64,000 bases of DNA from an uncultured Actinomycetes bacterium (GCA_963810915.1 CAWEPH010000006.1:939030-1003029), one strand, 5' to 3'. Positions 6,128 through 60,323 are shown, counted from the stretch's first letter. The notes: generated by a model from the sequence alone, not told the origin. Translations and numbers: made by a program.

Positions 6128-6252
6128 GGTCGGAGCAGTGTACCCCTGGTGCCCGACGAAGGGACCCTCCTTCCGCCCTCCCCCGCCGCATCGGTCTACC
6201 CCGACGAGCGGGGTAGCCTGGGGCGTAGGAGCGTTCGATCGGGAGGTCGGAG

Positions 6253-6597
6253 ATGAGCGAGATCCGCGTCGTATCCTCGGCGGACCGGGACGGCTGGACC
6301 GAGATGGCGGATCCCCCCGGCGAGATCCCGTCCGCTTGGCGCGACCTCACGATCCTCGAGTCCGGGGGCGGCGCGTTCACGACCGGACTGTGGGAGCGCG
6401 AGCCCGACACGTGGCCTCTGGAGCGAACCTACGACGAGGTGGCGGTGATCCTGGAGGGTTCGGCAGACATCGAGACCGACGACGGCACGATGCTGCACGT
6501 AGGTCCGGGCGACGTCCTGGTGACCCCCAAGGGGTCCAGGGGCGTATGGCACGTGCGCGAGACCATCGTGAAGTTCTTCGCGATCTACGACGCGTGA
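6253..6597 (+). CDS. Cupin-domain protein (cupin_3/DUF861-like)
   Basis: 114-aa ORF with conserved cupin beta-barrel motifs (GxWEREPDTW..., HVGPGDVLVTPKGSRGVWHV). Confidence 0.6.
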   Translation: MSEIRVVSSADRDGWTEMADPPGEIPSAWRDLTILESGGGAFTTGLWEREPDTWPLERTYDEVAVILEGSADIETDDGTMLHVGPGDVLVTPKGSRGVWHVRETIVKFFAIYDA

Positions 6598-7091
6598 TCA
6601 CGGTGGACCCGTCGTCGCCGAACCCGTGGGGCTCCCTCGAGCCGGAGGGCGAAGAGCCTGGCGCACCGATGCCCCTGTACCCCGAGGTGGGCTCGTGGAG
6701 GACCCTCGGCCGCGGGCTCCGCAAGCGATGCCCGCGATGCGCATCGGGAGGCATCTTCTCGTCGTGGTTCACGTTGCGGGCGGCGTGCCCGCGATGCGAG
6801 CTCCGGTTCGAGAAGGAGGAGGGCGGCTACCTCGGCGCCATGGTGCTGAACTTCATCGTGGCGGTGGGGCTCTGGGTCGCACTGATGGCGATCTGGCTGG
6901 TCTTCACGGTGCCCGACGTGCCGGTGGCGCCGCTCTCCGTCGCGAGCTGCGTGCTGTTGATCGTGGTCCCCCTGATCTTCTATCCCAACTCCAAGGCGAT
7001 CTGGGCCGCGGTCGAGTTCCTGGTCCTGAAGACCGATCCGGACTACCGACCGCCGGTGCGGCGCGACCCCCGGGCGAAGGGCCTGGAGTAG
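6594..7091 (+). CDS. DUF983-family zinc-ribbon membrane protein
   Basis: CPRC...CPRC zinc ribbon followed by two TM helices. The GTG start overlaps the cupin stop. The upstream part of the long ORF 6066..7091 is antisense to other genes and was rejected. Confidence 0.55.
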   Translation: MITVDPSSPNPWGSLEPEGEEPGAPMPLYPEVGSWRTLGRGLRKRCPRCASGGIFSSWFTLRAACPRCELRFEKEEGGYLGAMVLNFIVAVGLWVALMAIWLVFTVPDVPVAPLSVASCVLLIVVPLIFYPNSKAIWAAVEFLVLKTDPDYRPPVRRDPRAKGLE

Positions 7092-7102
7092 CCGCTGGGC
7101 GA

Positions 7103-7493
7103 TCACGGCGGCGCAGCGCCGGGCGAGGCCACCGGCAGATCGACGACCGCGCGCGAGCGCGCCGTGATGAAACGATCTCCGGGGAGCAACAGCAGCGAGC
7201 CGACGGGAACACGCACATCGACGAGCACCTCCGTGCCTCCGGCGTCACAGGCACACGCCGTGAGGGTGCCGCCGTTGCGCTCCGCGTACTCGGTCGCCAC
7301 CTCCGACGGTTCCATGCCCGTGGAGAACGCCATGCTCCTCGGCGGCGGCGAGCGCGGCGGCGTCCGCCGCCTGCTCCGCGTGCGCGCGTGCCACGAGCGC
7401 GTGCCCGACGTCGGCCGCGCCCATCGTGATGACCACGAGCAGCGCGATCACCGCCGCCGTCACGACGGTCACCGAGCCCCGCTCCTCGCTCAA
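7103..7493 (-). CDS. TadE-like pilus-assembly protein of the actinobacterial helicase/secretion neighbourhood type (TIGR03816-like); apparent frameshift near 7330
   Basis: N-terminal VTVVTAAVIALLVVITMGAADVG...AADAAALAAA signature. The C-terminal NGGTLTACACDAGGTEVLVDVRVPV segment continues in another frame (ORF 7103..7333). Confidence 0.55.
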
Positions 7494-7885
7494 CCGAACT
7501 CCTGACGATCGGTCGAGGTGGCATGCATGGGCACGCTGCCGCCGAACAACCAGTCGATCAACGGCACGCGCACGGCGGAGACGTAGTCCACCGTCACCGT
7601 GACGGGGTCGCCACGGACGCCCGCTCTGCCCACTGAGAGCGAGAGCGCGGCCGGGTCGAGCGAGGGCGCGGCGGCAGCCGCGGCATCGCGGATCGCTGCC
7701 GCATCGTCCTGGAGGGCGGCGGCGCGCGCCCCGGCGCGCGCCGCCGACTCCACCAGCAGCCGGTCCCGGACCAGCAGCCCGACCTGGACGACGGCCAGCG
7801 TGATCACGAGGAGCAGCGGGAGCACGAGCGCGAACTCGACGGCGGCGGTTCCCCGCTCAGCGTCGATGCCGGTCCTACGCCGCAC
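7490..7885 (-). CDS. TadE-family pilus assembly protein
   Basis: N-terminal class-III-like signal/TM with the AAVEFALVLPLLLVITLAV motif typical of TadE/TadF. 4-nt overlap with the downstream gene. Confidence 0.7.
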   Translation of the reverse strand: MRRRTGIDAERGTAAVEFALVLPLLLVITLAVVQVGLLVRDRLLVESAARAGARAAALQDDAAAIRDAAAAAAPSLDPAALSLSVGRAGVRGDPVTVTVDYVSAVRVPLIDWLFGGSVPMHATSTDRQEFG

Positions 7886-8090
7886 CGGCGTTCCCGATCA
7901 CGTCGTCGATCACCTGGTCGAAGAACGCGGGCAGCTTCCCCGACGAGTGCGCCCACGCGATCAGCACGACGGCCACGGCGGCCGCCGCCAGGATCACGAG
8001 CGCGTACTCCGCCGTGGTCTGTCCCTCCTCGCGTCGAAGGAGCCCCAGCGCACGGAACCACAGGACGTGCACGAGCACCATCCGATCCAC
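7875..8090 (-). CDS. Flp-pilin-like / DUF4244 small membrane protein (Rv3656c-like)
   Basis: 71-aa ORF with G-TTAEYALVILAAAAVAVVLIAW, the Flp/DUF4244 hallmark (G/xxxxEY followed by a hydrophobic helix). Confidence 0.6.
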   Translation of the reverse strand: MDRMVLVHVLWFRALGLLRREEGQTTAEYALVILAAAAVAVVLIAWAHSSGKLPAFFDQVIDDVIGNAGAA

Positions 8091-8100
8091 CTCCTCTCGC

Positions 8101-8938
8101 TCAACGGATGGACTGCACGGTGGTGAGCAGCACGGGCACCACCGTCAGGAGGAGGAAGGCGGGGAGGACGAGGAACACGAGCGGGAAGAGCATCTTCACC
8201 GGGCGCGGTGCGGGCCCGCTCGGTGATCGCGGCGCGTCGGGTGGCACGAACCGTCGACGGCGAGCTCGGCCGTCGCTTCGGCCAAGGACGAACCCAACGA
8301 CTCCGTGCGGGTGACGGCCGCCACCGCTCGCGTGAAGTCGGGGAGTCCGAGCCGGCCTGCGAGCGCCCGCAGCTCGTCGCGCCAGCGGGCCCCCAGATCG
8401 ACGCTGTCGAGCGTGCGGCGTAGCTCGCCTGCGAGCGGACCCTGCAGGCCGTCGGTGGCTCGCCGCAGGGCGAGGGGTGCTGCGAGTCCCGCCGACGACC
8501 CGGCCGCGAGGAGGTCGAGGAGCTGCGGGATCTCGGCGTCGATCGCCGTCCGTCGTCGTCTGGCGGCCCGAGCCGCCACGAAGCAGCGGCAGCCTGAGGC
8601 CGACGAGACCGAGCACCGGCGCGATCAAGCGGACCCGGCCCGGGTACGAGGAGCCCGAGCAGGACGCCCGCCCCACCCGTCACCAGACGGAGGCCCGCGA
8701 ATCGCGCCGGGGTGAAGGTCCATCCGCTCGTCGCGAGCGCTGCGTCGGCGCGGGATCCGCGAAGCCGCCGGCCCACCCGAGTCCTGCCGAGCCTCGTCAA
8801 CGGATCGGCGGGAGCGACGCCCGCGTCATCGTGGGCAAGGGGAAGCCGTCGCAGGATGGGGACCGTCGAGGCGGTGCATACGGCCAGCGCACACGCAGCG
8901 GCCGCGCCGAAGGCGAGCAGCATGGTGACCTCCGTCAT
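8101..8938 (-). CDS. TadC-like type II secretion system F-domain membrane protein; reading frame broken at least twice
   Basis: Frame X (8938 down to ~8590) holds the N-terminal TM and an internal TM. Frame Y (8579..8196) holds the T2SSF core (IPQLLDLLAAGSSAGL...). Frame Z (down to 8101) holds the C-terminus (PVKMLFPLVFLVLPAFLLLTVVPVLL). Confidence 0.55.
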
Positions 8939-9758
8939 CGGACCTCGAGGAGGTGCCGGATCCAAAGGAACGCCAGCCCCTCCATCGCGAGGCCGACCGT
9001 CACGGCGGCGATGCCCGCGGGCGTGCGGAACGCGCCCTCGATGTCGCTGCGCGAAGTGAGCCAGAGGAAGCCGAAGAACCCGATGGGGAGGAACCCGAGG
9101 ATCGCGCCGGAGAGGCGTGCCTGAGCGGTGAGGGCTCGCACTTCCTGGGCGGCCGCCCGTCGTTCGCGCAGCGTGACACCCACCTGATCGAGGACCATCG
9201 GGAGATCGCCACCGCTTCGGCGATGCAGGTGCAGGACGCCCGCGAGGAGCCTCGCGTCGCCGGTTCCCAAGCGTCGTCGACCCAGCCGTCGAGCGCGTGC
9301 TCCAGCGGGACGCCGACCGCGAGCTCGTCCACCACCCGACGGATGCTCAAGCTCAACGGGGCGGGCGTCTCCTCGGCGGCGTATCCGATCGCCTGCGGGA
9401 GCGACCGGCCCGCCCGCAGTGCCGCGGACAGCGCCCCCACCGCGTCGGCGAGCTGCTCGTCTTCCGTCGCCGATCGCTTGGCAGCCCGCCGCCTGGTGAC
9501 GAGCCGACGCACGAAGAGGGCGGCGGCGGCTCCCAACGCGGCGCCGAGCGGCGCGACGAGCACCCATCCGACCACCGCGCCCGCGGCCACCCACGGGACC
9601 CAGGTCGGCACCGAACGCATCTGCAAGCCGGCACCGAGCGCCGCTACACCCTCGGGCCGGTGCACGCGTTCCAGCAGCGCCGCTCGCCGATGCGCCGCGC
9701 CAGCCCGGCCGCCGAGCCAGACGAGGAGGAACGCGAGGACCCCGACCAGCGCGATCAT
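8935..9758 (-). CDS. TadB-like type II secretion system F-family membrane protein; apparent 1-nt deletion near 9290
   Basis: The N-terminal part is in ORF 9000..9758 (MIALVGVLAFLLVWL...). The C-terminal part is in the frame of ORF 8935..9765 (GDLPMVLDQVGVTLRERRAAAQEVRALTAQARLSGAILGFLPIGFF). Inserting 1 nt at the junction restores the frame. Confidence 0.6.
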
Positions 9759-9761
9759 GCG

Positions 9762-11046
<1,285 letters not shown>

Positions 11047-11251
11047 CGCCGACCTCCGTCCGCGCCGAACCCACGTGTCATCAACGAGGGGAAGCTGCGA
11101 GGGGGAAGCGACGGTCGGTGTTCTGGTGACCGCCGAGGGGAAAGCGAACGATAGCGAGCCCGGCGCGTCGAACCCATCCCCAGCCCGACCGATTCCCGGT
11201 TCTTGTCGGGGGACGATGTCCGAACGTGTCGGGTGAGACGGCCGCGGTTCG

Positions 11252-12910
11252 TTACCGCTCGCCGGGGTCGGTCGGCATGCGTTCGTCCACGATCGCCTGT
11301 GCGCGTTCGCGGCTCTGGGGATGACCGGTGACGGCCTCGAGGAACGGTTCCCGCTCGAGCGCCAGGAGCGTCATCGGCGTCGCAGCCGTGACGGTCGCCG
11401 TTCGCGGCACGTCGCGCAGCAACGCGATCTCACCGATGTGCTCGCCGACGCCGCGGTCGGTCACGTGCGCGCCATCCCGGGTCACCTCGGCCTCGCCCGT
11501 CTCGATGACGTAGAAACGCTCCCCTACCTCCCCCTCGCGGATCAGGACGTCGCCGGCCGCGAGCTCCGTCCGCTTGAGGTTGACGAGGATCCGCTGGATG
11601 GCCGGCGCAGGCAGCGGAGCGAAGATCGGTATGCCGCGTATCAGCTTCAGCATCTCGGCGTCCGGGGCCCTCGCCTCGCGGTCGATCGCTGAGAGCGGGA
11701 CCCAGAGCGCGAGGGCGGAGATCGGAGCTAGCGCACCGACCACGATGAGGGCCGTCCGCACGCCGAACGCCGCCATCAGCGCTGAGGCGCCCAGTGCGCC
11801 GGCCGCCGTCCCCAATGTCCCCAATCCTTCGACGATGCCGAACACGCGCGCCAGGACCTCGTCGGGCGCGATCCGCTGCAGGAGGGTGTTGCCGGCCATC
11901 CACGAGACGCTGCCTCCGGCACCGGCCGCCGCAAAGAGGAGGGGCGCGCTCGCTGCGGACGGAGCCGCGCCGACGACGATGATGGGCGCCCCGAACAGGA
12001 GCGTGCCGCCGGCGAGGGACGGGACCAATCGGCGCCGACCGACCAACGCCACCGTGAGGAGCGCCCCGACCAAGGCACCGACCCCCGCGGCCGAGTTGAG
12101 GAATCCGGCCCACCCCTGACCCTTGTGGAGCAGGTCGATGGCCACGCCGACGTAGATCACGTCGAGGGCTCCCAACAGGAGCATGCTCGCGGCCATCACG
12201 ATCACGAGCAGGCCCGCCCTGCGTTCCTCAGCGAGCACGCGGAAGCCTCCGAACGCCTCGCGTACCACGTCGTGCGCATCCATCGGCTCCTCGGGGCGCA
12301 TCCCGCCGGAGGCCACATCGAGACGCGCGACCAAAAGGGCACCGACGAACACGACCACCGCGAAGAGGGCGAACACCGCGGCCGGTCCGGTCTTCGCGAG
12401 CACCACGCCGGCAACGAACGGTCCGATCACCAGCGAGGCGCTCTCGGCCATGGCCGACACGGAGTTGGCCGCGGTCAGCTCCTTCGGGCTGAGAGCCACG
12501 CTGGGCAGGAGCGCGGACTGGGTGGGTCTCGTGAACGTCATGCTGGCGGCCGCGACGGTCGCGAAGACCAACGTCAGCCCGAACGGCGCGTCCGCGGCCA
12601 GGGCGATCGCGACCACGCCGAGCGCGACCGCCTGCGCGAGGTAGCTCACGAAGAGCACACGGTCGCGCGCGAACCGGTCGCCGGCGAAGGCCCCGAACGG
12701 CGCCACGAGCCCCGCCGGGACCAGCTGGATCGCCGCGGCCAGCCCGGCGGCCGTAGCCCCCCCGCGGTCGTACGCATAGACGAGGATCGCGATCCACGTG
12801 CCGTACTCCGACATGCCGAACCCGAAGAACGCGAGCTCGATCCGTGCCATCCGAGGATCGCGCGCGATGGCGCTCACGGTGCGCACCTGATCCCTCATGC
12901 CGCGCAGCAT
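11252..12910 (-). CDS. MFS transporter fused to a C-terminal cyclic-nucleotide-binding (CAP effector-type) domain
   Basis: About 12 TM helices with an MFS loop motif (GDRFARDRV). The C-terminal ~120 aa carry cNMP-binding motifs (FYVIETGEAEV...GEHIGEIALL...RTATVTAAT). Start may be 12910, 12898 or 12850. Confidence 0.75.
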   Translation of the reverse strand: MLRGMRDQVRTVSAIARDPRMARIELAFFGFGMSEYGTWIAILVYAYDRGGATAAGLAAAIQLVPAGLVAPFGAFAGDRFARDRVLFVSYLAQAVALGVVAIALAADAPFGLTLVFATVAAASMTFTRPTQSALLPSVALSPKELTAANSVSAMAESASLVIGPFVAGVVLAKTGPAAVFALFAVVVFVGALLVARLDVASGGMRPEEPMDAHDVVREAFGGFRVLAEERRAGLLVIVMAASMLLLGALDVIYVGVAIDLLHKGQGWAGFLNSAAGVGALVGALLTVALVGRRRLVPSLAGGTLLFGAPIIVVGAAPSAASAPLLFAAAGAGGSVSWMAGNTLLQRIAPDEVLARVFGIVEGLGTLGTAAGALGASALMAAFGVRTALIVVGALAPISALALWVPLSAIDREARAPDAEMLKLIRGIPIFAPLPAPAIQRILVNLKRTELAAGDVLIREGEVGERFYVIETGEAEVTRDGAHVTDRGVGEHIGEIALLRDVPRTATVTAATPMTLLALEREPFLEAVTGHPQSRERAQAIVDERMPTDPGER

Positions 12911-12959
12911 CGCACCCTCGGGCTCACCCGGTTTGCGGCCCCGAACCCCTGGCCCGAGG

Positions 12960-14342
12960 ATGGGCCCCGTGGAGATCCCGGAGATCCGCTACGCGAAGAC
13001 CCGTGACGGGATCCACATCGCCTATCAGGTGCTCGGCGACGGCCCGGCCGACCTGTTGTTCGTTCCGGGCTTCGCGTCGAACCTGATCTGGAACTGGCAG
13101 CTCCCCTCGTACGCCCACTTCCTGCGGCGACTGGGTTCGTTCTGCCGACTCATCATCGTCGACCGCCGCGGCTGCGGGGTCTCCGACCGGCTCTCACCCG
13201 AGGATCTCCCGTCCCTGGAGGTGATCGCGGACGACCTCGGCGCGGTGCTGGACGCCGTGGCGTCCGAGCGCGCGTCGATGTTCGCGGCGGATGAAGGCGC
13301 GCAGGGCGTGGCGCTCTTCGCAGCGACCCATCCCGAGCGGGTCGAGCGCCTGATCATCTACACGATGGACCCGATGGGCGACTTCCAGCCCTGGGCCGAC
13401 GGCTACAAGTCGCGCGAAGAGCGCGAGGCGTTCCTGGAGGCGTTCATCGTCGAGGTCGTCAAAGGTTGGGGCACGAGGGAGTTCGCGCATTCCGACCCGC
13501 TCGGAGGTCTCGTGATCTGCGGACCTTCCCTAGCCGACGATCCGAACGCGATCGATTGGTACACGGCGTTGTTGCTCCTCTCCACCAGCCCGAGTGGAGC
13601 GGTCGCGTTCCATCGCATGTACTTCGAGACTGACGCCCAGCCGATCCTCGCGTCCATCCGCGTCCCGACGTTGTTGCTCCACCGCGTCGGCGATCTGCTC
13701 GAACCGATCGAAGCGTCGCGCTTCATGGCCGGGCTGATCCCCGGCGCCCGCTTGATCGAACTGGACGGGGACGATCACGTGTGGTTCGCGGGCGACACCG
13801 ACTCCATCGTGGACCCGATCCAGGAGTTCATGACGGGTGCCCGGCCGGCGCACGACCTCGACCGCGTCCTGGCGACCGTGCTGTTCACCGACATCGTCGG
13901 CTCGACCGAGATGGCGGCCAGGCTGGGCGACACGGCATGGAAGGAACTGCTCGCCACGCATGACGAGTGGGCAAAGACGGAGATCGCAAGACATCGAGGG
14001 AACTACGTCCACACGACGGGCGATGGTCTGCTCGCGACCTTCGACGGACCGGCACGAGCGGTGCGATGCGCACAGGCGATCGGTGAGGCGGTTCGGTCGC
14101 TCGGGATCGAGCTCCGGTCGGGTTGCCATACGGGTGAGATCGAGCTCACCGCTGATGACGTGCAGGGTCTCGCCGTGCACATCGGCGCCCGAGTGGCCGC
14201 TGCCGCCGGGCCGGCCCAAGTTCTCGTCTCCTCCACGGTGAAGGATCTCGTGGCCGGATCCGGTCTCAGCTTCGAGGATGCCGGCGTGCACGAGCTGAAG
14301 GGCGTGCCCGACACCTGGCATCTCTATCGGGTTGTCGGCTGA
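12960..14342 (+). CDS. Paralog 1: alpha/beta-hydrolase-fold domain fused to class III nucleotidyl cyclase domain (LipJ/Rv1900c-like)
   Basis: N-domain has hydrolase-fold motifs (FVPGF...IIVDRRGCGVSD...). The cyclase homology domain has [44 protein letters not shown]. The stop overlaps the next start (TGATG). Confidence 0.8.
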   Translation: MGPVEIPEIRYAKTRDGIHIAYQVLGDGPADLLFVPGFASNLIWNWQLPSYAHFLRRLGSFCRLIIVDRRGCGVSDRLSPEDLPSLEVIADDLGAVLDAVASERASMFAADEGAQGVALFAATHPERVERLIIYTMDPMGDFQPWADGYKSREEREAFLEAFIVEVVKGWGTREFAHSDPLGGLVICGPSLADDPNAIDWYTALLLLSTSPSGAVAFHRMYFETDAQPILASIRVPTLLLHRVGDLLEPIEASRFMAGLIPGARLIELDGDDHVWFAGDTDSIVDPIQEFMTGARPAHDLDRVLATVLFTDIVGSTEMAARLGDTAWKELLATHDEWAKTEIARHRGNYVHTTGDGLLATFDGPARAVRCAQAIGEAVRSLGIELRSGCHTGEIELTADDVQGLAVHIGARVAAAAGPAQVLVSSTVKDLVAGSGLSFEDAGVHELKGVPDTWHLYRVVG

Positions 14343-15700
14343 TGGAGACCCCTCGCACGCGGTACGCGAAGACCGTCGACGGGGTCAGCATCGCCTATCA
14401 GGTGCGGGGTGACGGGCCCGTCGATCTCATCTACGCGAGGGGGTGGACCCAGAACCTCGAGATCGAGCTCGAGGGACCGCGGAGCGGCGCCTGGTTCAGT
14501 GGGCTCGCCTCCATCTCGCGTTTGATCCTCTTCGACAAGCGAGGGACGGGCCTCTCGGACCGCACCGCGACGCCCGACCTCGAGATACGCGCCGACGACC
14601 TGCGAGCGGTGCTCGACGCCGCCGGCTCGGACCGCGCTGTCGTGATGGGCGACGCCGACGGTGGCGCCCTCGCGGTGTTCTTCGCGGCGACCCACCCGGA
14701 GCGCGTGCAGGCCCTGATCCTCAATGGGGCGTACGCGCGCGCCGCATGGGCCCCCGACTACCCGATCGGGCAGAAGGAGGACGACTTCCTGGCAGACCGA
14801 GAAGACACGGCCAGACGATGGGGCACGATCGAGTTCGCGCAGGAATGGGTCGATCGACAGGCGCCCTCGCTCTCGAACGACACCGAATACGTCGAATGGT
14901 TCGCGAAGACCTTGCGGCACGGGGCCTCTCCCGCGGCCGAGCTCGAGTTCGAAGACATGTGGCGCGAGATCGACGTCCGCTCCGTGCTCGGAAGCGTGCA
15001 GGCGCCAACGCTCGTGGTCGCCACGCCGGGTGCGGGCGATCTGGTCAAGGGGACGGGGGACGTGGCCCGCGAGCGTTACCTCGTCGAGCGGATCCCCGGC
15101 GCGAAGTACGTGGAGCTCCCTGGCCGCGACCTCATCATCGAGCACACGAACCCAACCCTGCTCCTGGATGAGATCGAACGGTTCATCCGATCGGTGAGCG
15201 CGGAGGAGCGCGAGATCGATCGGGTCCTGGCGACCGTCATGTTCACCGACATCGTGGGCTCGACCGAACGAGCGTCCACGTTGGGCGACGCAGCATGGAG
15301 AGATCTGCTGGAGCGCCACCATCGAACGGTGCGAGCGATGATCGGCCGCTATCGGGGACAGGAGATCAACACGGCGGGCGACGGGTTCCTGGCCACGTTC
15401 GACGGCCCCGCTCGAGGGGTGAGATGCGCGCAAGCGATCGCCGAAGCGGTACATCCCCTTGGCCTCGAGGTCCGAGCCGGCCTGCACACGGGCGAGATCG
15501 ACGTCACCGGCGACGATGTTCAGGGTATCGCCGTGCATATCGGTGCCCGTGTCGGGGCCCTGGCGGGTCCGTCCGAGGTCTTGGTCTCGCAGACGGTCAA
15601 GGACCTCGTCGCCGGGAGCGGGCTCACGTTTGAGGAGGCCGGCGAGCACGAGCTCAAGGGCGTCCCTGACCGCTGGCACCTCTACCGGGTGGTGAGCTGA
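14342..15700 (+). CDS. Paralog 2: hydrolase-fold + class III cyclase fusion
   Basis: 452 aa, intact. METPRTRYAKTVDG...FTDIVGSTERA...[26 protein letters not shown]...RAGLHTGEI...[10 protein letters not shown]. Confidence 0.85.
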   Translation: METPRTRYAKTVDGVSIAYQVRGDGPVDLIYARGWTQNLEIELEGPRSGAWFSGLASISRLILFDKRGTGLSDRTATPDLEIRADDLRAVLDAAGSDRAVVMGDADGGALAVFFAATHPERVQALILNGAYARAAWAPDYPIGQKEDDFLADREDTARRWGTIEFAQEWVDRQAPSLSNDTEYVEWFAKTLRHGASPAAELEFEDMWREIDVRSVLGSVQAPTLVVATPGAGDLVKGTGDVARERYLVERIPGAKYVELPGRDLIIEHTNPTLLLDEIERFIRSVSAEEREIDRVLATVMFTDIVGSTERASTLGDAAWRDLLERHHRTVRAMIGRYRGQEINTAGDGFLATFDGPARGVRCAQAIAEAVHPLGLEVRAGLHTGEIDVTGDDVQGIAVHIGARVGALAGPSEVLVSQTVKDLVAGSGLTFEEAGEHELKGVPDRWHLYRVVS

Positions 15701-15701
15701 C

Positions 15702-17060
15702 TTGGAGACCTACCGGACGCGGTACGCGATGACCGTCGACGGGGTGAACATCGCCTACCAGGTACGAGGGAACGGACCGGTCGATCTCCTCTGGGTCGGG
15801 GGGTTCACCGCGAACCTCGAGGTTGAATACGACGGCCCAAGGAACAACGCCTCCTTCTACGCGGAGCTCGCCGCGTTCACCCGGCTGATCTTGTTCGACA
15901 AGCGCGGGACCGGGTTGTCGGATCGCACGCAGACCCCCGACCTCGAGAAGCGTGTCGACGATATGCGGGCGGTGTTGGACGCGGTCGGCTCCGAGCGAGC
16001 GGTGGTGCTTGGCGCCGCGGACGGCGCGGCCCTGGCGGCGTTCTTCGCGGCGACACATCCCGAACGGGTTCAGGCGCTGATCCTCAAGTCTCCCAGCGCG
16101 CGCACCGCATGGGCCCCCGACTACCCGCAGGGGATGAAGGAGGAGGACTACCTGGCGGAACGGGAGGATATGGCGCGACGATGGGGCTCGATCGAGCTGG
16201 CGCAGGAATGGGTGTCACGTGAGGCCCCCTCGCTCGCGCACGACACCGAATACGTCGAGTGGTTCGCGAAGTCGATGCGACATGGTGCATCCCCGGGGTC
16301 CGCCGTCGCGTTCGAGGACGTTTACTACGCGATCGACGTGCGGTCGATCCTCGGGAGCGTCCAGGCGCCCACCCTCGTGCTCGCCATCCCAGGAGCGGAC
16401 GAGCAGTTCGAGACCGTAGGCGCTGGACAGGACCGAGACCTCGCCGATGGGATCCCCGGCGCGAAGTACGTCGAGTTGTTTGGGCGAGATCTCGTCATCA
16501 TCGCCACGAACCCGCGAGTGCTTCTCGACGAGATCCACGGATTCATCAACTCGGTGAGCGCCGAGGAGGCCGAGTTCGATCGCGTACTCGCGACCGTGCT
16601 CTTCACCGACATCGTCGGCTCGACCGAGCGCGCGTCGGCGTTGGGAGACGGGGCGTGGAAGGACCTACTCCGACGCCACCACGAGGTGGTTCGCGCCATG
16701 ATCGGCCGTTACCGCGGCAAGGAGATCGGCACGGCGGGCGATGGGTTCCTCGCGACCTTCGACGGCCCCGCTCGAGGCGTGCGCTGCGCGCAGGCGATCG
16801 CCGAGGCCGTGCAACCCCTAGGTCTGGAGATCCGAGCCGGCCTGCACACCGGCGAGATCGAGGTGACGGGCGACGATGTCCAGGGCATCGCCGTCCACAC
16901 GGGCGCCCGCGTCGGTGCCCTCGCGGGACCGTCCGAAATCCTGGTCTCCCAAACCGTCAAGGATCTCGTGGCCGGATCGGGTCTCGCCTTCGAGGACGCC
17001 GGCGAGCACGAGCTGAAGGGCGTGCCCGACCGCTGGCGCCTCTATCGGGTGGTGGGCTGA
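15702..17060 (+). CDS. Paralog 3: hydrolase-fold + class III cyclase fusion
   Basis: 452 aa, intact, TTG start 1 nt after the previous stop. More than 70% identical to paralogs 2 and 4 by eye. Confidence 0.85.
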   Translation: METYRTRYAMTVDGVNIAYQVRGNGPVDLLWVGGFTANLEVEYDGPRNNASFYAELAAFTRLILFDKRGTGLSDRTQTPDLEKRVDDMRAVLDAVGSERAVVLGAADGAALAAFFAATHPERVQALILKSPSARTAWAPDYPQGMKEEDYLAEREDMARRWGSIELAQEWVSREAPSLAHDTEYVEWFAKSMRHGASPGSAVAFEDVYYAIDVRSILGSVQAPTLVLAIPGADEQFETVGAGQDRDLADGIPGAKYVELFGRDLVIIATNPRVLLDEIHGFINSVSAEEAEFDRVLATVLFTDIVGSTERASALGDGAWKDLLRRHHEVVRAMIGRYRGKEIGTAGDGFLATFDGPARGVRCAQAIAEAVQPLGLEIRAGLHTGEIEVTGDDVQGIAVHTGARVGALAGPSEILVSQTVKDLVAGSGLAFEDAGEHELKGVPDRWRLYRVVG

Positions 17061-17061
17061 G

Positions 17062-18405
17062 GTGGACATCCCTCGCACCCGGTATGCGAAGACCGTCGAC
17101 GGGGTCCACATCGCGTATCAGGTACGGGGTGACGGGCCTGTCGATCTCATCTACGCGATGGGATACACGGCGAACTTCGAGGTGGAGCTCGAAGGACCTC
17201 GGAGCGGCATGTACTTCGATGGGCTTGCCTCGCTCGCCCGACTGATCCTGTTCGACAAGCGTGGGACCGGGTTGTCGGACCGAACCCAGACACCCGACCT
17301 CGAGATGCGCGCGGACGACCTGCGAGCGGTGCTGGACGCGGTCGGATCCGAACGAGCAGTGGTGCTCGGTGCTGCCGACGCCGGCGCCCTGGCGGCCTTC
17401 TTCGCGGCCGCCCATCCGGAGCGGGTGCGGGCCCTGATCCTCAACGGGGCCTACGCGCGGAAGGCGTGGGCTCCCGACTACCCGAACGGGCAGACGGAGG
17501 AGGACTACCGCGAAGGTCGAGAAGACATGGCACGACGCTGGGGGACGATGGAGCTGGCACAGGACTGGGTCGATGCCGAGGCGCCGTCGCTCTCGCACGA
17601 CGCGGAGTACCTGGAATGGTTCACCAAGACCATGCGCTACGGCGCTTCCCCTGCGGCCGCCGTCGAGTTCGAGGACGCGATCTACGCCATCGATGTACGG
17701 GCGATCCTCGGGACGGTGCAGGCGCCGACCCTCGTGCTGGCGCAGCCCGGTTCTCTGGACACCGCCGGCGGGCGCGAACGCGATCTTGCAGACCGGATCC
17801 CCGGCGCGAAGTACGTCGAGCTTCCGGGGCGGGACTTCATCATGGAGCACACCAACCCCGCCCCCCTGCTGGATGCGATCGGAGGGTTCATCCGATCGGT
17901 GAGTGCTGAGGAGCGCGAGATCGACCGGGTCCTGGCGACCGTCCTGTTCACCGACATCGTGGGTTCGACGGAGCGGGCGGCCCAACTCGGGGATGGAGCG
18001 TGGAGGGCCTTGCTGGAGCGGCACCACGAGGTGGTGCGGGCGATGATCGGGCGGTACCGGGGCACCGAGGTCAGCACGGCGGGCGACGGGTTCCTCGCGA
18101 CGTTCGACGGACCCGCCCGAGGGGTTCGCTGCGCGCAGGCGATCGCTGAAGCGGTGCAGCCGTTGGGGCTCGAGATCCGAGCCGGTTTGCACACGGGTGA
18201 GGTGGAGACGATCGACGGCTCGGTAGGCGGCATCGCCGTCCACACCGGCGCGCGCGTGGGTGCCCTCGCAGCACCGTCCGAGGTCCTCGTCTCGCAGACC
18301 GTCAAGGATCCGGTGGCCGGCTCCGGCCTCTCGTTCGAGGATGCCGGTGAGCACGAGCTGAAGGGTGTCCCCGACCGGTGGCGCCTGTACCGGGTGGTGA
18401 GCTGA
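17062..18405 (+). CDS. Paralog 4: hydrolase-fold + class III cyclase fusion
   Basis: 447 aa, intact, GTG start. Same motif set. The stop overlaps the next ATG (TGATG). Confidence 0.85.
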   Translation: MDIPRTRYAKTVDGVHIAYQVRGDGPVDLIYAMGYTANFEVELEGPRSGMYFDGLASLARLILFDKRGTGLSDRTQTPDLEMRADDLRAVLDAVGSERAVVLGAADAGALAAFFAAAHPERVRALILNGAYARKAWAPDYPNGQTEEDYREGREDMARRWGTMELAQDWVDAEAPSLSHDAEYLEWFTKTMRYGASPAAAVEFEDAIYAIDVRAILGTVQAPTLVLAQPGSLDTAGGRERDLADRIPGAKYVELPGRDFIMEHTNPAPLLDAIGGFIRSVSAEEREIDRVLATVLFTDIVGSTERAAQLGDGAWRALLERHHEVVRAMIGRYRGTEVSTAGDGFLATFDGPARGVRCAQAIAEAVQPLGLEIRAGLHTGEVETIDGSVGGIAVHTGARVGALAAPSEVLVSQTVKDPVAGSGLSFEDAGEHELKGVPDRWRLYRVVS

Positions 18406-19760
18406 TGGAGTCCCCTGAGACCAGGTACGCCCTGACCTCGGACGGCGTCTACGTCGCGTACCAGATGCTCGGCGAGGGCCCCATCGACCTAGTGTTCGCC
18501 TTCGGCTGGCTCAACAACGTCGATTCCGTCTGGTCGATCCCGGAGATCGCATCGTTCTATCGACGCCTGGCCGCCTTCTCTCGCTTGATCATCTTCGACC
18601 GGCGCGGCACGGGGTTGTCGGACCGCATCACCGAGGGTGAGGCTGCAACCTTCGAAGCCGGCATGGACGACATCCGAGCAGTGATGGATGCGGCAGGATC
18701 CGAACGGGCCCTGCAGGTCGGGTTCCAAGACGGCGGGATGCTCTGCGCGCTGTTCGCGGCATCCTTCCCGGAGCGAGCCACCGGCCTCGTGATCATCGGG
18801 AGCTCGCCGGTAACCATCTGGGCACCGGACGCTCCCTGGGGATGGACGGAACAGGAGTATCAGCCATACCTCGATGCCTTGGTGCAAGGCTGGGGCACAC
18901 CCGGATGGACCGCGCGGCACATGGAATCGATGGCACCTTCGTTCCGAAGCAGCGACCGGGCGGCCGTGGAGCGCTTCGCCAAGCATTTCCGCGCGTGTGC
19001 GAGTCCGGGTACGGCGCTGGCGATCGAACGGATGCTCATGCACAGCGACGTGCGAGGCGTGCTCCCGACGATCCAGGTGCCGACGCTCGTGATCCACAAC
19101 GTCGATGATGCGGTCGAAGAGGTCAGAGCAGCGCGCTACACGGCTGAAGAGATCCCCGGGGCCAAGCTCGTCGAGCTGCCGTTCACGGAGCATGCGCCCT
19201 TCTACGAGAGCGCGAACCCGACCCTTGAAGCTGTGGAGACGTTCGCCTCGCAGGTTCGAGCGGAGCAGGCCGAGTTCGACCGCGTGCTCGCCACCGTGCT
19301 GTTCACCGACATCGTGGACTCCACCGCCCAAAGCGCGGCCATGGGCGACCACCTGTGGCGGGACGTGCAGCAACGACACGACCGCATCGTGCGGGCGAAC
19401 CTCGCACGCTACCGAGGGAGAGAGATCAAGACGATGGGCGACGGATTCCTCGCCACGTTCGACGGACCCGCACGCGGCGTGCGGTGCGCCGAGTCGATAG
19501 CGGCGGCGATACTGCCGCTCGGGATCGAGATCCGCGCCGGGCTGCATACGGGCGAGGTGGCGTTCGAAGGCGACGATGTCAACGGCCTGGGGGTGGCGAT
19601 CGGGGCGCGCGTCGGAGCCCTCGCTAGAGCGTCCGAGGTGCTGGTCTCCCAAACCGTCAAGGACCTCGTGGCCGGCTCCGGACTCACGTTCGAGGACGCC
19701 GGTGAGCACGAGCTGAAGGGCGTGCCCGACCGCTGGCGCCTCTACCGGGTGGTGGGCTGA
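18405..19760 (+). CDS. Paralog 5: hydrolase-fold + class III cyclase fusion (more divergent; Lys retained in KTMGDGF)
   Basis: MESPETRYALTSDG...FTDIVDSTA...[29 protein letters not shown]...RAGLHTGEV...GLGVAIGARV. Confidence 0.8.
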   Translation: MESPETRYALTSDGVYVAYQMLGEGPIDLVFAFGWLNNVDSVWSIPEIASFYRRLAAFSRLIIFDRRGTGLSDRITEGEAATFEAGMDDIRAVMDAAGSERALQVGFQDGGMLCALFAASFPERATGLVIIGSSPVTIWAPDAPWGWTEQEYQPYLDALVQGWGTPGWTARHMESMAPSFRSSDRAAVERFAKHFRACASPGTALAIERMLMHSDVRGVLPTIQVPTLVIHNVDDAVEEVRAARYTAEEIPGAKLVELPFTEHAPFYESANPTLEAVETFASQVRAEQAEFDRVLATVLFTDIVDSTAQSAAMGDHLWRDVQQRHDRIVRANLARYRGREIKTMGDGFLATFDGPARGVRCAESIAAAILPLGIEIRAGLHTGEVAFEGDDVNGLGVAIGARVGALARASEVLVSQTVKDLVAGSGLTFEDAGEHELKGVPDRWRLYRVVG

Positions 19761-19761
19761 G

Positions 19762-21211
19762 GTGAACACGCCTCGCACCCAGTACGTAAAGACCGACGAC
19801 GAGGTGTATATCGCCTACCAGGTCGTCGGCGACGGTCCAGTCGACCTGGTCTGGCAGTTCGACTACTTCGGGAACGTCGACGCCGTGTGGGAGCACCCGC
19901 TGTGGGCGCGCTTCCTCGGCGGCTTCGCGGAATTCTCTCGGCTGATCCTCCTTGATCGTCGAGGGACAGGGCAGTCGAGCCGCAACGTACCGCCGTCCGA
20001 TCTTGAGACCCGCGCCAGGGACCTGCGGACGGTCCTCGATGCATTGGGATCCGACGTCGTGGTGGCGGCTGGCCACGGTCAAGGAGGAGCCGCGAGCGCC
20101 CTCGCAACGTACCGCCGTCCGATCTTGAGACCCGCGCGAGTGACCTGCGGACGGTCCTCGATGCGTTGGGGTCCGACGTCGTGGTGGCGGCCGGCCACGG
20201 CCAGGGGGGAGCAGCGAGCGCCCTGTTCGCCGCTACGGAGCCGGATCGGGTGCGCTCGTTCGTGTGGGATGAACCGGTAGCGCGGACGTTGTGGGCACCC
20301 GACTATCCGTGGGGCGTGAGCATCGCATATCTCGAGCGACGCACGTCGGCTGACCCAGGACCACTGGGGAACGGATGCCTTCTTCGCGATGTTGGCGGCG
20401 CTTGATGACTATCCCGTGCCGACGGAGGTGACGATCGGGTACGGGAAGCTCTGCCGATCCACCGCCACCCCGGACGTCGCGCTCGAGATCGATCGCATCT
20501 GGAACGAGACCGACATCCGCGGGGCACTTCCGTCCGTGCGCGCGCCCGCACTCCTCACCGAGCTGGATTCCGGTGATCCGGGCCAGATCAACTACATCGC
20601 GTCGCTGATGCCGGACGCACGGGTGGTTCGGATCCCCGGCGAAGATGGATACCAGCCCGAGGTGATCGACCGCACTCACGATGCGATCCGGGCCTTCCTC
20701 GGGCTGGCGACGGCACCACCTGGCGCGGACCGGATCCTGGCAACGGTGCTGTTCACCGACATCGTCGATTCCACAGGACGAGCGGCCGAGCTCGGTGACT
20801 CCGCCTGGAGGCAGGTCCTGGCGGCGCACGACGAGCGAGCTCGCGACCGAGATCGAGCGGTATGACGGACGCTATGTCCATACGACCGGCGATGGGCTGC
20901 TCGCCACGTTCGATGGACCCGCGCGGGCGGTGCGTTGCGCGCGTGCGATCGCGGACGCGGTCCGCTCGCTCGGTCTCGAGATCCGCGCGGGCTGTCACAC
21001 CGGCGAGATCGAGCTGGTCGGCGACGACGTGCAGGGCCTCGCCGTGCACATCGGCGCGCGCGTGGCGGCGCTGGCCGGAACCCCCGACGTGCTCGTTTCC
21101 TCGACGGTGAAGGATCTCGTCGCCGGCTCCGGCCTCACCTTCGAGGATGCCGGCGAGCACGAACTGAAGGGCGTGCCCGACCGCTGGCACCTGTATCGGG
21201 TGACGGGCTGA
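19762..21211 (+). pseudogene. Paralog 6: hydrolase-cyclase fusion disrupted by a ~122-bp internal tandem duplication plus at least two further frameshifts
   Basis: Homologous segments are spread over three frames (ORFs 19762..20280, 20166..20405, 20389..20865, 20681..21211). The duplicated peptide GSDVVVAAGHGQGGAASAL is encoded twice. Confidence 0.7.
19981..20224 (+). repeat. Direct tandem duplication, 2 x ~122 bp (about 93-95% identical), inside paralog 6
   Basis: The run gcaacgtaccgccgtccgatcttgagacccgcgc...gacctgcggacggtcctcgatgc.ttggg.tccgacgtcgtggtggcggc.ggccacgg... occurs at 19982 and again at 20104. The unit length is not a multiple of 3. Confidence 0.85.
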
Positions 21212-22549
21212 TGGAACGTCCCGAGGTCCAGTTCGCGAGGGCGTCCGACGGCGCGTACCTCGCCTATCAGACCTTCGGGAGCGGTCCTATCGACATCTTC
21301 TGGCAGGAAGAGTTCCTCGCCTTGGTCGACCAGTTCTGGGACTCCCCACCGGAGCGCGCGTTGCACGAGGGATTGGCCGAGTACGGCCGCGTGACCATCT
21401 ACGATCGGAGAGGCACGGGCTCTCGAGCCGCAACGTGGCGCCCGGCAACCTCGAGACCCAGGTCGCGGACACCCTCGCCGTCCTCGATGCTCAAGGCATC
21501 GAGCGCGCGGTCTTCGGTGGGATCCTCGAATGTGGAGCCGCGAACGCGCTGCTCGCCGCCACCTACCCGGACCGCGTCCAGGCGCTCCTGTGGATGACGC
21601 CTGTTCCTCGGACGACCACGACGTCGGACTACCCATGGGGAGTCGGACCCGAGTACGTCGAACGCGAGCGGAGATCCTCGAACGCTGGGGGACGTTACGA
21701 TGGGCTCGCGAGTTCGTCGAGATGAACTCGATGGTGATGGGCGGACCGTGGGCAAGCGGAGGAGTACATCCGGTTCATCACGAGAGCGAGCCGCAGGACC
21801 TGCACGCCCGACGTCGCGAAGGAGCTCAGCCGCATCTGGTACGACACCGACATCCGGGGCATCCTCCCGACGATCCAGGCACCGATGCTGCTGGTGACCT
21901 CCGAGGACGACTGACGACCTGGAATTAGCAGGCTCCGTCGCCGAGCGAGTTCCTCTCGCCGAGATCAGAACGTTCCCGGGTCCGTACCTCGAGATCGAGG
22001 ACTTCGCCTCGATCCATTCTGCGATCAGCCGATTCATCGGCGCCGAGCGGCCGCCTCTGGGCCTCGATTCCGTGCTCGCGACGGTGCTGTTCACGGACAT
22101 CGTCGGGTCGACCGAGCGCGGGGCCGCACTGGGGGACTGCGGCATGGCAGGAGATCCACGAACGCCACGACAGGATCGTGCGGGGCGAGCTCGAACGCCA
22201 TCGTGGCCGTGAGATCAAGCGCACGGGCGACGGCTTCCTCGCGACGTTCGACGGACCTGCACGCGGTGTGCACTGCGCCCGGGCGATCGCCGAGGAGATG
22301 CAGACCCTCGGGATCGAGATCCGCGCAGGGCTCCACACCGGGGAGATCGAACTCGACGCCGACGACATCGCGGGGCTCACGGTTTCGATCGGCGCCCGCG
22401 TGAGCGCGAAGGCCGGTCCGTCCGAGGTCCTGATCTCCCAGACCGTGAAGGATCTGATCGCAGGTTCGGGCCTCTCGTTCGAGGATGCGGGCGAGCACGA
22501 GCTGAAGGGCGTCCCGGACGTGTGGCACCTCTATCGGGTGGTCGACTGA
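21211..22549 (+). pseudogene. Paralog 7: hydrolase-cyclase fusion with multiple frameshifts
   Basis: Recognisable pieces sit in at least four frames: MERPEVQFARASDGAYLAYQ..., ...AVLDAQGIERAVFGG..., [21 protein letters not shown], and [26 protein letters not shown]...HLYRVVD. Confidence 0.65.
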
Positions 22550-23854
22550 GTGGACACCCCGGAGACGCGGTACGCGAAGGCGCCCGACGGGGTCTCGATC
22601 GCGTACCACGTCGTGGGCGACGGACCCATCGACCTCATCTGGCTCCACGCCTTCATGGGAGGGCTGGAGGTCATCTGGGAACACGAGGCGATGCGGTCGC
22701 TCACGACCAAGCTCACATCCTTCGCCCGCGTGATCAGGCACGACATGCGCGCGACGGGCCTCTCGAGCCGCGCGGCCGAGCTCCCCGACCTCGAGACGCA
22801 GGTGCAGGATGCGGCGGCGGTGCTCGACGCGGTTGGCTCTCGTTCGACCGTCATCTTGGGAGCGGGCCCCGGAGCGCACGCCGCGTCGCTGTTCGCGGCC
22901 ACCTACCCCGATCGCACCCGGGCGCTCGTCCTCTGGGACTTCTACGCGTGGGCCGGCAACGTGTTCCGCCCCACCGACCTCGACCTCCTGAGCCGGACCT
23001 GGGGCACCGAGGCGTCGGCCGCCGCCGCGATGGCCCAGGTGGCCCCATCGATGATCGACGACCGCGAGTTCCTCCGCTGGTACGCCAAGGTCCAGCGCCA
23101 CTTCGTGCCCCCCGACGTCGCCGCCGAGCTCATCCAGAGCGCGATCGACACCGACATCCGGCCCGTCCTACCCGTGATCCACGTCCCCACCCTGGTGTTG
23201 GCCCGAGGATGGTCCAACCACGAGAAGGATCGCGACGTGGCCCAGACGATCGAGGGGTCGACGTTCCTCCTGCTCCCGGGCTCGGACCGGGCGACCTTCG
23301 CCGGCAATCAGGACGACCTCGTCGGCGCGGTCAGGGACTTCGTCGGAGGTGGTCCAGCCGCCAGGTCGGGGCAGACCCTTCTGCGAGCCGTGTTGTTCAC
23401 CGACATCGTGGGGTCAACCGAGCATCTCGCGCGGGTCGGAGATCAGGCCTGGCGGGAGCTGATCGTCGCGCACGACGATCGCTCCCGACGCGCGATCGAA
23501 CGACACGGGGGCCACATCGTCAAGAGCACGGGAGACGGCGTGCTCGCGACGTTCGAGGGACCCGCGCAGGCCGTGCGTGGGGCGCAGGAGGTCGCGGCAT
23601 CGCTCGAGGAGCTGGGACTCGAGATCCGCGCGGGGGTCCACGTAGGCGAGATCGAGACCATCGGCGACGACGTCACGGGCGTGAGCGTGAACGTCGCGGC
23701 GCGGGTCGCGGCGATGGCGGGCGCCTCGGAGGTCCTCGTCTCCTCGACGGTGAAGGACCTGACCCCGGGATCGGGCCTCACCTTCGAAGACGCGGGGGAG
23801 CACGAGCTGAAGGGCGTCCCCGACACGTGGCACCTCTACCGGGTGATCCTGTGA
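22550..23854 (+). CDS. Paralog 8: hydrolase-fold + class III cyclase fusion (most divergent; canonical Asn retained in VNVAARV)
   Basis: 434 aa, intact, GTG start adjacent to the paralog 7 stop. FTDIVGSTEH, KSTGDGVLATFEGPAQAVRGAQ, RAGVHVGEIE, GVSVNVAARVAAMAG. Confidence 0.8.
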   Translation: MDTPETRYAKAPDGVSIAYHVVGDGPIDLIWLHAFMGGLEVIWEHEAMRSLTTKLTSFARVIRHDMRATGLSSRAAELPDLETQVQDAAAVLDAVGSRSTVILGAGPGAHAASLFAATYPDRTRALVLWDFYAWAGNVFRPTDLDLLSRTWGTEASAAAAMAQVAPSMIDDREFLRWYAKVQRHFVPPDVAAELIQSAIDTDIRPVLPVIHVPTLVLARGWSNHEKDRDVAQTIEGSTFLLLPGSDRATFAGNQDDLVGAVRDFVGGGPAARSGQTLLRAVLFTDIVGSTEHLARVGDQAWRELIVAHDDRSRRAIERHGGHIVKSTGDGVLATFEGPAQAVRGAQEVAASLEELGLEIRAGVHVGEIETIGDDVTGVSVNVAARVAAMAGASEVLVSSTVKDLTPGSGLTFEDAGEHELKGVPDTWHLYRVIL

Positions 23855-29503: not shown

Positions 29504-32656
<3,153 letters not shown>

Positions 32657-32678
32657 GGCCGACGCGATCCTTCCGTGG

Positions 32679-33110: not shown

Positions 33111-33123
33111 CGCGGCCCTCCTC

Positions 33124-60322: not shown

Positions 60323-60323
60323 C

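Follow-up and report, generated by a model that had tools for sequence, protein, structure and literature searches.

An eight-unit tandem array of LipJ-like cyclase genes adjoining a gene for a transporter with a cyclic-nucleotide-binding domain in an uncultured Actinomycetes bacterium

A 64,000-nucleotide stretch of DNA from an uncultured Actinomycetes bacterium (GCA_963810915.1 CAWEPH010000006.1:939030-1003029), hereafter the window, carries eight head-to-tail genes on the plus strand that resemble LipJ (Rv1900c) of Mycobacterium tuberculosis, in which an alpha/beta-hydrolase-fold half precedes a class III nucleotidyl cyclase half. The eight units (c1 to c8) span positions 12969-23854, are each about 1.35 kb long, and have starts that are spaced 1305-1451 nt apart (Table 1). 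Six of them (c1-c5 and c8) are uninterrupted open reading frames (ORFs), and c6 and c7 are readable only across frameshifts. Upstream, and in divergent orientation, lies a gene for a major facilitator superfamily (MFS) transporter with a C-terminal domain that binds cyclic nucleotide monophosphates (cNMP), here termed MFS-CNB. A preliminary description of this DNA, made from the sequence alone, had proposed an array of eight two-domain copies, and eight co-oriented units are present where it placed them. The start that it gave, an ATG at 12960, lies 9 nt upstream of the GTG of c1 (12969), which is kept in relatives together with an upstream GAGGA element.

Table 1. Coordinates of the array units and of the features within and beside them, counted from the first nucleotide of the window.
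Feature	Position	Strand	Description
c1	12969-14342	+	Intact; 457 aa from GTG; LipJ-like; LipJ profile score 410 bits
c2	14342-15700	+	Intact; 452 aa; LipJ profile score 420 bits
c3	15702-17060	+	Intact; 452 aa; TTG start; 76% identical to c2
c4	17062-18405	+	Intact; 447 aa; GTG start
c5	18405-19760	+	Intact; 451 aa from ATG within TGATG overlap; LipJ profile score 405 bits
c6	19762-21211	+	Interrupted in this assembly
c7	21211-22549	+	Five single-base indels interrupt the ORF in this assembly
c8	22550-23854	+	Intact; 434 aa; GTG start abuts c7 stop; LipJ profile score 327 bits
Frame-shifting 122-nt tandem duplication in c6	19981-20102 and 20103-20224	+	Repeat family D17; 93%
MFS transporter with C-terminal cNMP-binding domain	11252-12910	-	Divergent from the array; Pfam MFS_1 (1.9e-27) and cNMP_binding (1.1e-17, residues 449-527)
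Divergent intergenic spacer	12911-12968		58 nt; presumed shared promoter region; GAGGA Shine-Dalgarno-like element before c1 GTG

The units are packed in the manner of an operon, as had been proposed. At every junction we read a TGATG stop/start overlap (c1/c2, c4/c5, and c6/c7), a single base between stop and start (TGA-N-NTG; c2/c3, c3/c4, and c5/c6), or directly abutting stop and start codons (TGAGTG; c7/c8). From these junctions, the units would be expected to be co-transcribed and translationally coupled, and the overlaps suggest that the paralogs may be produced in stoichiometric amounts. A terminator scan returned two terminator-like matches, fewer than in shuffled sequences and none at any unit boundary, and a scan for sigma-70 promoters found no promoter-like site, with both scans being uninformative for DNA of such high G+C content (~68%).

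Pfam, NCBIfam, and structural comparisons agree on the LipJ-like, two-domain architecture of the units that had been described. Abhydrolase_1 and Guanylate_cyc both scored above the Pfam gathering score in all six intact copies, the latter (PF00211) with 31-49 bits against a cut-off of 21.9, and a cyclase homology domain is therefore present in each of them. The NCBIfam LipJ model (NF058673), which was scanned against c1, c2, c5, and c8, matched all four over its full length (positions 6-448/449; E-values of 1e-97 to 1e-125). Because the scores of these matches (327-420 bits) do not reach the 800-bit equivalog cut-off of the model, we regard the units as homologs of the mycobacterial protein that share its architecture but are not its equivalogs. 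The cyclase half of c2 matched the Rv1900c cyclase domain in sequence (PDB 1ybt; E-value of 2.6e-55, 60% identity), and an AlphaFold (AF2) model of c2 (pLDDT 90.4, pTM 0.67) superposed on structures 1YBU/1YBT in Foldseek with a template-modeling (TM) score of 0.95, a root-mean-square deviation of 1.0 A, and 60% identity.

The catalytic core of the cyclase is kept in every unit, in agreement with the preliminary description. No unit departs from the metal-binding Asp pair and the transition-state Arg, even in the conceptual reading frames of c6 and c7, and neither does any of 115 close homologs. Both Asp motifs that had been named are therefore found throughout the array, although c7, with KRTGDG, departs from the pattern given for the second, [TS]xGDG. 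From c1 to c8, the Lys-equivalent position of the cyclase reads H, N, G, S, K, H, K, K and the Asn-equivalent position H, H, H, H, A, H, S, N. At the Asp-equivalent position, only c4 departs from D, with an S, and an Arg is present at the fourth position of each unit; c1 is thus H, D, H, R, c4 is S, S, H, R, and the conceptual products of c6 and c7 are H, D, H, R and K, D, S, R, respectively. With N, D, H, R, c2 carries exactly the set of Rv1900c (N342, D395, H402, R406), including its non-canonical Asn and His, whereas the other copies vary at these two positions (H/G/S/K and H/A/S/N); the set of c8 (K, D, N, R) is canonical throughout. In c5, c7, and c8, the Lys...Asp pair is of the canonical adenine type.

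Since the Asn and His of Rv1900c are reportedly dispensable and without substrate contact, we read the variation at the Lys- and Asn-equivalent positions as probable relaxed constraint and not as new nucleotide specificity. The His-for-Asn substitution in Rv1900c has been noted before (PMC4886424). Among the close homologs (P0001-P0120), the two substrate-specifying positions are mostly exchanged relative to canonical adenylyl cyclases, with Asp in place of Lys in 92 of 115 and Lys in place of Asp in 82 of 115; none of the eight window copies displays this swap.

The N-terminal 290 residues of the c2 model superpose on capped aryl esterases and haloperoxidases (Foldseek TM scores of 0.84-0.87), and an Ala of c2 aligns with the Ser at the nucleophile elbow of three solved esterases. 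From c1 to c8, this nucleophile position reads D, A, A, A, Q, G, L, G, with neither Ser nor Cys in any unit; among the 115 homologs, it is Ser in 54 and another residue in 61. The position of the triad His is His only in c1 and c5 among the eight units and is not conserved even among relatives that contain the Ser. Judged from these alignments, all eight units lack the Ser-Asp-His triad of a catalytic serine alpha/beta hydrolase, with its Ser in an Sm-x-Ser-x-Sm elbow, and this Ser, a prerequisite for esterase or lipase activity, is replaced in each. Because the nucleophile Ser is absent from all eight units, their hydrolase domains are probably sensor or regulatory modules rather than lipases. 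The loss of the nucleophile, together with purifying selection and the fast divergence of the half that comprises the cap and pocket (see below), leads us to propose a sensor-input role. The only unit in which other chemistry is conceivable is c1, which combines the Asp with the His.

The preliminary description had taken c2, c3, and c4 for near-identical copies. They are 76-79% identical in protein and about 75-83% identical in nucleotide sequence, with a synonymous divergence (dS) of 0.7-0.9, and this divergence rules out a recent amplification. Across the array, pairwise protein identity is 41-79% (46-79% to c2), dS between copies is 0.7-1.2, and the ratio of nonsynonymous to synonymous divergence (omega) is well below 1, with purifying selection detected on every intact copy. 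Divergence is distributed unevenly along the proteins. The cyclase domains are 57-88% identical between units, with a nearly invariant C-terminal segment, and the input halves are 33-75% identical. Averaged over all pairs of the eight units, identity is 71% in the cyclase domain versus 48% in the first part of the hydrolase core, 32% in the cap, 33% in the second part of the core, and 29% in the linker helix. Omega follows the same pattern, with 0.2-0.8 in the hydrolase-fold half versus 0.06-0.46 in the cyclase half (0.23-0.31 versus 0.09-0.15 among c2, c3, and c4).

Collectively, these observations indicate that the copies are old duplicates, each kept by selection, that combine a diversified input with a conserved output. 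The fast divergence of the hydrolase-fold half fits diversified inputs feeding one output, and the diversification of an input domain that had been suggested is therefore supported by both identity and omega. The dosage mechanism suggested alongside it fares less well, since copies that are old and individually conserved make simple dosage amplification unlikely. Because c1 and c6 share 81% identity in the cyclase domain but only 33% in the N-terminal half, this pair points to possible domain-level recombination of old date between members of the array.

Homologous loci, designated here by L numbers, place the array in a lineage context. The related assemblies derive from other samples. An independent assembly (L091) contains c1-c8 in the same order at 89-96% identity, and the same locus with the same flanking genes carries eight units in L083 and seven intact genes each in L087 and L088. 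At least six units are found at this locus in L002 and five in L001, whereas L089 and L090 have none, even though an MFS-CNB gene of at least 90% identity and the Tad operon are present. The prediction that array size would vary within the lineage was thus borne out (8, 8, 7, 7, at least 6, 5, or 0 units among independent assemblies). L087 and L088 keep, in order, orthologs of c2 (96%), c6 (83%), c7 (86%), and c8 (93%) and have other paralogs in place of c1, c3, c4, and c5; the 96% ortholog of c2 is also found in L083. Proteins exactly matching c4 (P0010), c5, c8, and the MFS transporter are on record from a 1,064,317-bp NCBI/ENA contig.

L001 and L002 lack exactly c4 and c5, both of which are present in L091, and they thus differ by a two-unit indel between strains. 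Gene 3 of L001 and L002 is identical to c3 over its first 1020 nt and c5-like over roughly the last 120 nt, a switch that is the trace expected of unequal recombination within the conserved 3' cyclase segment. The identity of the window to L001 and L002 is itself a mosaic. Positions 11333-16833 (MFS-CNB to c3) contain 6 substitutions in 5.5 kb. Divergence is 1-2% on the Tad side (4333-11333), where it rises to 7.6% in a patch at 10833-11333, and 8-10% in c6-c8 (19762-23400), in blocks that are alternately L091-like and L002-like. This mosaic suggests that homologous exchange between co-occurring strains may be frequent around the array. LipJ-like sequence was also seen outside the array. L091 has a ninth LipJ-like gene (11676-13019, minus strand; 447 aa, ~53% identical to c1-c4) between MFS-CNB and the Tad operon. 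In L002, a 1.5-kb insertion (4270-5764) in the T2SSE gene of that operon holds an 80-residue fragment that is 64% identical to the N-terminus of c2; it lies at 5462-5701 on the opposite (minus) strand, so a LipJ-like piece has moved outside the array.

Beyond these relatives, the family is very large, with at least 8000 candidates in protein searches and loci in GTDB genomes of Actinomycetota, Chloroflexota, Proteobacteria, and other phyla. A family scan confirmed at least 579 GTDB stretches, of which the best 80 loci were examined with flanks of up to 10 kb. A single copy was found at about 70 of these best 80 loci, and the largest tandem clusters comprised 3-4 copies (L004, L023, and L034). 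The closest GTDB relatives of the cyclase among the matches listed are 48-55% identical. An array of seven or eight units is therefore the extreme of a known tendency as well as a conserved trait of one small clade. The expansion had been called unusual, which is consistent with a maximum of four tandem copies among the best 80 loci; being shared by a small clade, it is not a one-off. No description of tandem LipJ-like arrays was found in the searchable literature, which is weak evidence of absence. What is known is the LipJ/Rv1900c-type family, and what is unusual is its large tandem expansion, polymorphic between strains. Smaller arrays of 2-4 units are found elsewhere, and the locus does not represent a novel type of system. 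Among the matches listed from a search with the M. tuberculosis LipJ cyclase-domain sequence were only short, cyclase-only proteins of at most 87% identity. Many of them (P0143-P0262) are 160-280 aa long and 72-87% identical to the Rv1900c cyclase domain. Some of these are encoded on contigs longer than 100 kb and the domain may thus exist on its own, while many others are on short contigs and may be fragments.

The interruptions of c6 and c7 require separate consideration. Compared with L002, c6 contains the 122-nt tandem duplication and 1-nt insertions near 20338 and 20841, and c7 contains two 1-nt deletions and three 1-nt insertions (near 21415, 21670, 21756, 21912, and 22141). The two 122-nt copies differ at nine sites; the first resembles L091 (2 mismatches) and the second matches L002 exactly. 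The duplication thus sits at a junction of two haplotype-like segments, formed either by real recombination or by an assembly join. All of these interruptions are private to this assembly and are missing from four related ones, L091, L002, and L087 among them. An intact ortholog of c6 is found in L002 (441 aa) and in L087 and L088 (439 aa), and an intact ortholog of c7 (445 aa) in six relatives (L001, L002, L083, L087, L088, and L091). Private 1-nt indels occur in relatives as well, namely in c1-c4 of L091 and once in c6 of L001, in a G run. Private single-base indels scattered over a different set of genes in every assembly have the appearance of consensus error; their clustering in two genes, along with a duplication that breaks the frame, has that of recent decay. 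The decay of c6 and c7 that the preliminary description had noted is thus real in the sense that both are interrupted here, but since the interruptions are private and the orthologs intact, it reflects either recent decay or consensus error.

No indel was found across positions 11333-17060 of the window. On the far side of MFS-CNB, nine private 1-nt insertions relative to L001 break the ORFs of Tad pilus genes (TadE-like, two T2SSF, and T2SSE; 7332-10378, minus strand). The Tad genes of L083 and L091 are also fragmented, and the T2SSE gene of L002 carries the insertion mentioned above. The Tad interruptions could reflect either parallel decay of a pilus operon or a locally poor consensus.

The cNMP-binding (CNB) domain of MFS-CNB (PF00027) scored 64.2 bits against a cut-off of 27.5, and the phosphate-binding cassette read from the translation, GEIALLRDVPRTATV, is intact, including its Glu and Arg. 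The transporter part is EntS-like and of the class with 12 transmembrane (TM) helices. Conservation across five assemblies, in which the first unit is either c1-type or c2-type, is 92% in an alignment of 110 nt that comprises the spacer and the flanking coding sequence (~25 nt to either side). MFS-CNB adjoins the array in divergent orientation in six related arrays (L001, L002, L083, L087, L088, and L091). Moreover, genes with CNB domains lie beside or between LipJ-like genes in unrelated metagenome-assembled genomes (MAGs; L023, L036, L049, and L007). These associations support a local link between cyclases and CNB proteins without proving it, and their adjacency suggests that MFS-CNB is a likely local cNMP effector.

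Two other clusters have gene arrangements of their own. In the cluster of L023 (9980-16979), a Thermoleophilia MAG, four co-oriented LipJ-like genes are interleaved with a gene for a tandem-CNB protein (11418-12359) and followed by a further CNB ORF (16602-16979), which constitutes an independent cyclase-CNB cluster. In L084 (8599-12649), which is from the same sample as L083, two adjacent LipJ-like genes, one of them 83% identical to c2, are followed 16 nt downstream and in the same direction by an MFS_1 gene without a CNB domain.

We favor, with a probability of roughly 0.6, the reading that the array forms a single operon for a battery of soluble class III adenylyl cyclases that belong to the Rv1900c/LipJ family, have diversified inputs, and share MFS-CNB as a receiver. 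A single transcript would extend from the divergent spacer through c8, and the nature of the junctions suggests that its paralogs would be translated in a coupled manner. In each protein, a capped alpha/beta-hydrolase fold without the nucleophile Ser would serve as a ligand-binding or regulatory input, most likely not as an esterase, and a long linker helix would connect it to the C-terminal cyclase homology domain. This domain would dimerize head-to-tail, as is the property of class III cyclases, and would make cyclic AMP (cAMP), a product predicted by analogy with Rv1900c and from the presence of Lys/Asp or Asn/Asp pairs. With the output domain kept and the input half diversified, several signals may converge on one second messenger. 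The cAMP would then act, among other targets, on the adjacent MFS-CNB transporter and modulate transport, as its position suggests. Units may undergo birth and death by unequal homologous recombination, for which the conserved 3' part of the cyclase domain would provide the site. A more elaborate form of this reading, which we put forward as speculation and consider unlikely, is a multi-input chemosensory device in which dead receptor domains bind different ligands, possibly within mixed dimers, locally produced cAMP gates MFS-CNB, and the repertoire of receptors is reshuffled among strains.

Several observations weigh against a battery of sensory adenylyl cyclases. Translational coupling to c8 would be lost if c6 and c7 are truly interrupted. 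The variation at the Lys- and Asn-equivalent positions (H/N/G/S/K and H/A/S/N) makes cAMP a putative product. Some copies may retain residual catalysis, given the Asp at the nucleophile position of c1 and the triad His of c1 and c5, and LipJ itself has been reported to be an esterase (Kumari and Kaur 2021, as cited in PMC10865251). With respect to the receiver, a CNB gene was found nearby at only 5 of 80 unrelated loci among the best 80. Because L089 and L090 keep MFS-CNB next to the Tad operon without the array, the transporter is not strictly dedicated to these cyclases.

Other explanations of the array differ in what they assume about the two halves of the proteins. Co-translated paralogs could heterodimerize like the mammalian C1/C2 cyclases, such that two inputs gate a shared interfacial active site. 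Stoichiometric co-production, as suggested by the stop/start overlaps, would suit this possibility, as would the conservation of the cyclase domains and of their C-terminal segment, the differences between copies at the Lys- and Asn-equivalent residues, and the location of class III active sites at the dimer interface. Rv1900c homodimers are also said to be asymmetric, with half-of-sites reactivity, and 'asymmetric homodimers' of Rv1900c are mentioned in PMC3938503. However, each copy keeps the two Asp and the Arg, without the complementary losses seen in C1/C2, and relatives keep different subsets of paralogs, which argues against obligate pairs. Such combinatorial heteromers are plausible but unlikely in our judgment, and nothing requires them. 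If instead the hydrolase-fold halves were active esterases, the array would represent a set of bifunctional lipolytic enzymes with different substrates. This is what the NCBIfam family name ('bifunctional lipase/adenylate cyclase LipJ') implies, and PMC10865251 lists LipJ as a characterized esterase; the modeled fold is a complete capped alpha/beta hydrolase, and the elbow Ser is kept in 54 of the 115 close homologs. Against this stand the lack of Ser or Cys at the elbow in all eight units and the poor conservation of the triad His, even in relatives that have the Ser, which together make the lipase explanation improbable. Plain dosage amplification, or decay of a redundant family whose copies never differentiated in function, would account for a copy number of 0, 5, at least 6, 7, or 8 among close relatives and for the two interrupted units, and tandem arrays arise easily by unequal recombination. 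The dS and omega values imply long-term separate maintenance, however, the input halves have diverged to as little as 33% identity, and orthologs are retained across species in the same order, so we regard this explanation as distinctly unlikely.

Two further explanations were rejected. A Pycsar-like anti-phage module, in which a cyclic (pyrimidine) nucleotide activates a membrane effector bearing a CNB domain, shares with the locus the logic of a cyclase next to a CNB-fused membrane protein, and PADLOC returned weak matches of c1, c3, c4, and c8 to PycC (best E-value of 6e-8) and of the CNB domain of MFS-CNB to the CNB part of PycTIR. The PycC matches cover only about 75 of 226-248 profile positions, the LipJ matches are far stronger, the neighbor is an MFS/EntS-like transporter and not a Pycsar TM or TIR effector, and c5, c7, and c8 carry the adenine-type pair. 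Eight cyclases per effector are also unlike the Pycsar layout, the locus is chromosomal, and L089 has MFS-CNB and the Tad genes without the array; membership in Pycsar is thus very improbable. The preliminary description had itself raised the possibility of an assembly artifact, in which mis-assembly of a repetitive region inflated the number of units. The DNA comes from a metagenome assembly, private 1-nt indels occur in c6, c7, and the Tad genes, and the 122-nt duplication sits at a haplotype-like junction. Yet at 41-79% protein identity the units are too divergent for collapse or expansion by an assembler, and independent assemblies reproduce the locus, with the c1-c8 order in L091 and 8, 7, and 7 units in L083, L087, and L088. 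In addition, c4-like and c5-like proteins (clusters of at least 90% identity) each derive from a 3,698-bp JGI contig, probably the same one. We therefore consider an inflated copy number extremely improbable.

Comparison with characterized systems helps to define what is particular to the sensory cyclase battery that we favor. LipJ is a single-copy gene in M. tuberculosis. The array shares with it (PDB 1YBT and 1YBU; NF058673) domain order, length (~450 aa), and, in c2, the cyclase similarity and residue set described above, and it differs in comprising eight tandem copies instead of one gene and in carrying H/G/S/K and A/S/N at the two non-canonical positions of the other copies. M. tuberculosis also encodes three adjacent class III cyclase paralogs with HAMP domains (Rv1318c-Rv1319c-Rv1320c). 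They resemble the array as tandem class III cyclase paralogs that arose by local duplication in an actinobacterium, but they are three membrane-anchored genes with a HAMP input, versus eight with a soluble hydrolase-fold input, and we know of no CNB-fused transporter next to them. Fusions of an MFS transporter to a cNMP-binding domain like that of MFS-CNB are represented by Rv3239c and Rv3728 of M. tuberculosis, an actinobacterium rich in cyclases. These proteins carry further domains and, to our knowledge, are not adjacent to LipJ, whereas MFS-CNB is divergently paired with the array across a conserved 58-nt spacer.

For the input half, a parallel is offered by alpha/beta-hydrolase receptors (plant D14/KAI2/HTL and GID1, and Bacillus RsbQ), in which the same capped fold is used for small-molecule perception. 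Foldseek matches of c2 include rice D14 (9jqg, TMt 0.80) and Striga HTL1 (5z7w, TMt 0.80), and the expansion of the Striga HTL family with divergent pockets parallels the divergent cap and C-terminal core of the array. D14 and KAI2 keep the Ser-His-Asp triad and hydrolyze their ligand, whereas the eight units lack the Ser and have a fused cyclase as output instead of protein-protein signaling; the resemblance is one of logic only. Pycsar likewise resembles the locus in that a cyclase adjoins a membrane protein with a cNMP-binding domain, but here each of eight cyclases carries a hydrolase-fold domain, the putative effector is an MFS protein, and features of a defense island are absent.

The role of the alpha/beta-hydrolase domain in LipJ-type cyclases is unclear, and the array provides a natural series of six to eight paralogs, presumably co-expressed, with a conserved cyclase output, strongly diverged inputs that lack the Ser, and a candidate cAMP receiver alongside, with which its function as a sensor could be probed. 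Relatives with 0-8 units offer a comparative system for the turnover of sensor repertoires in soil Actinomycetota, and the array is also suited to asking whether class III cyclase paralogs form mixed dimers.

The remainder of the window contains genes with no evident connection to the array. Downstream of c8 are convergent ABC transporter genes (permeases and a binding protein) that are probably unrelated to it. Rfam and tRNA scans of the window detected only a tRNA-Sec, far from the array (60233-60325, plus strand; Rfam 72.7 bits, ARAGORN anticodon TCA). It lies just upstream of a gene for a GNAT, CoA-binding, and ATP-grasp protein of the acetyl-CoA synthetase/acetyltransferase type and inside the longest ORF call for that gene (59976-63044, plus strand), and no selenoprotein gene was identified among the window ORFs scanned. 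At 29504-37098 (minus strand), a 143-aa ORF without a Pfam match separates two neighboring genes for AcrB/RND-type transporters (1050 and 1081 aa), which are adjoined by a gene for a LuxR-type response regulator (36436-37098).

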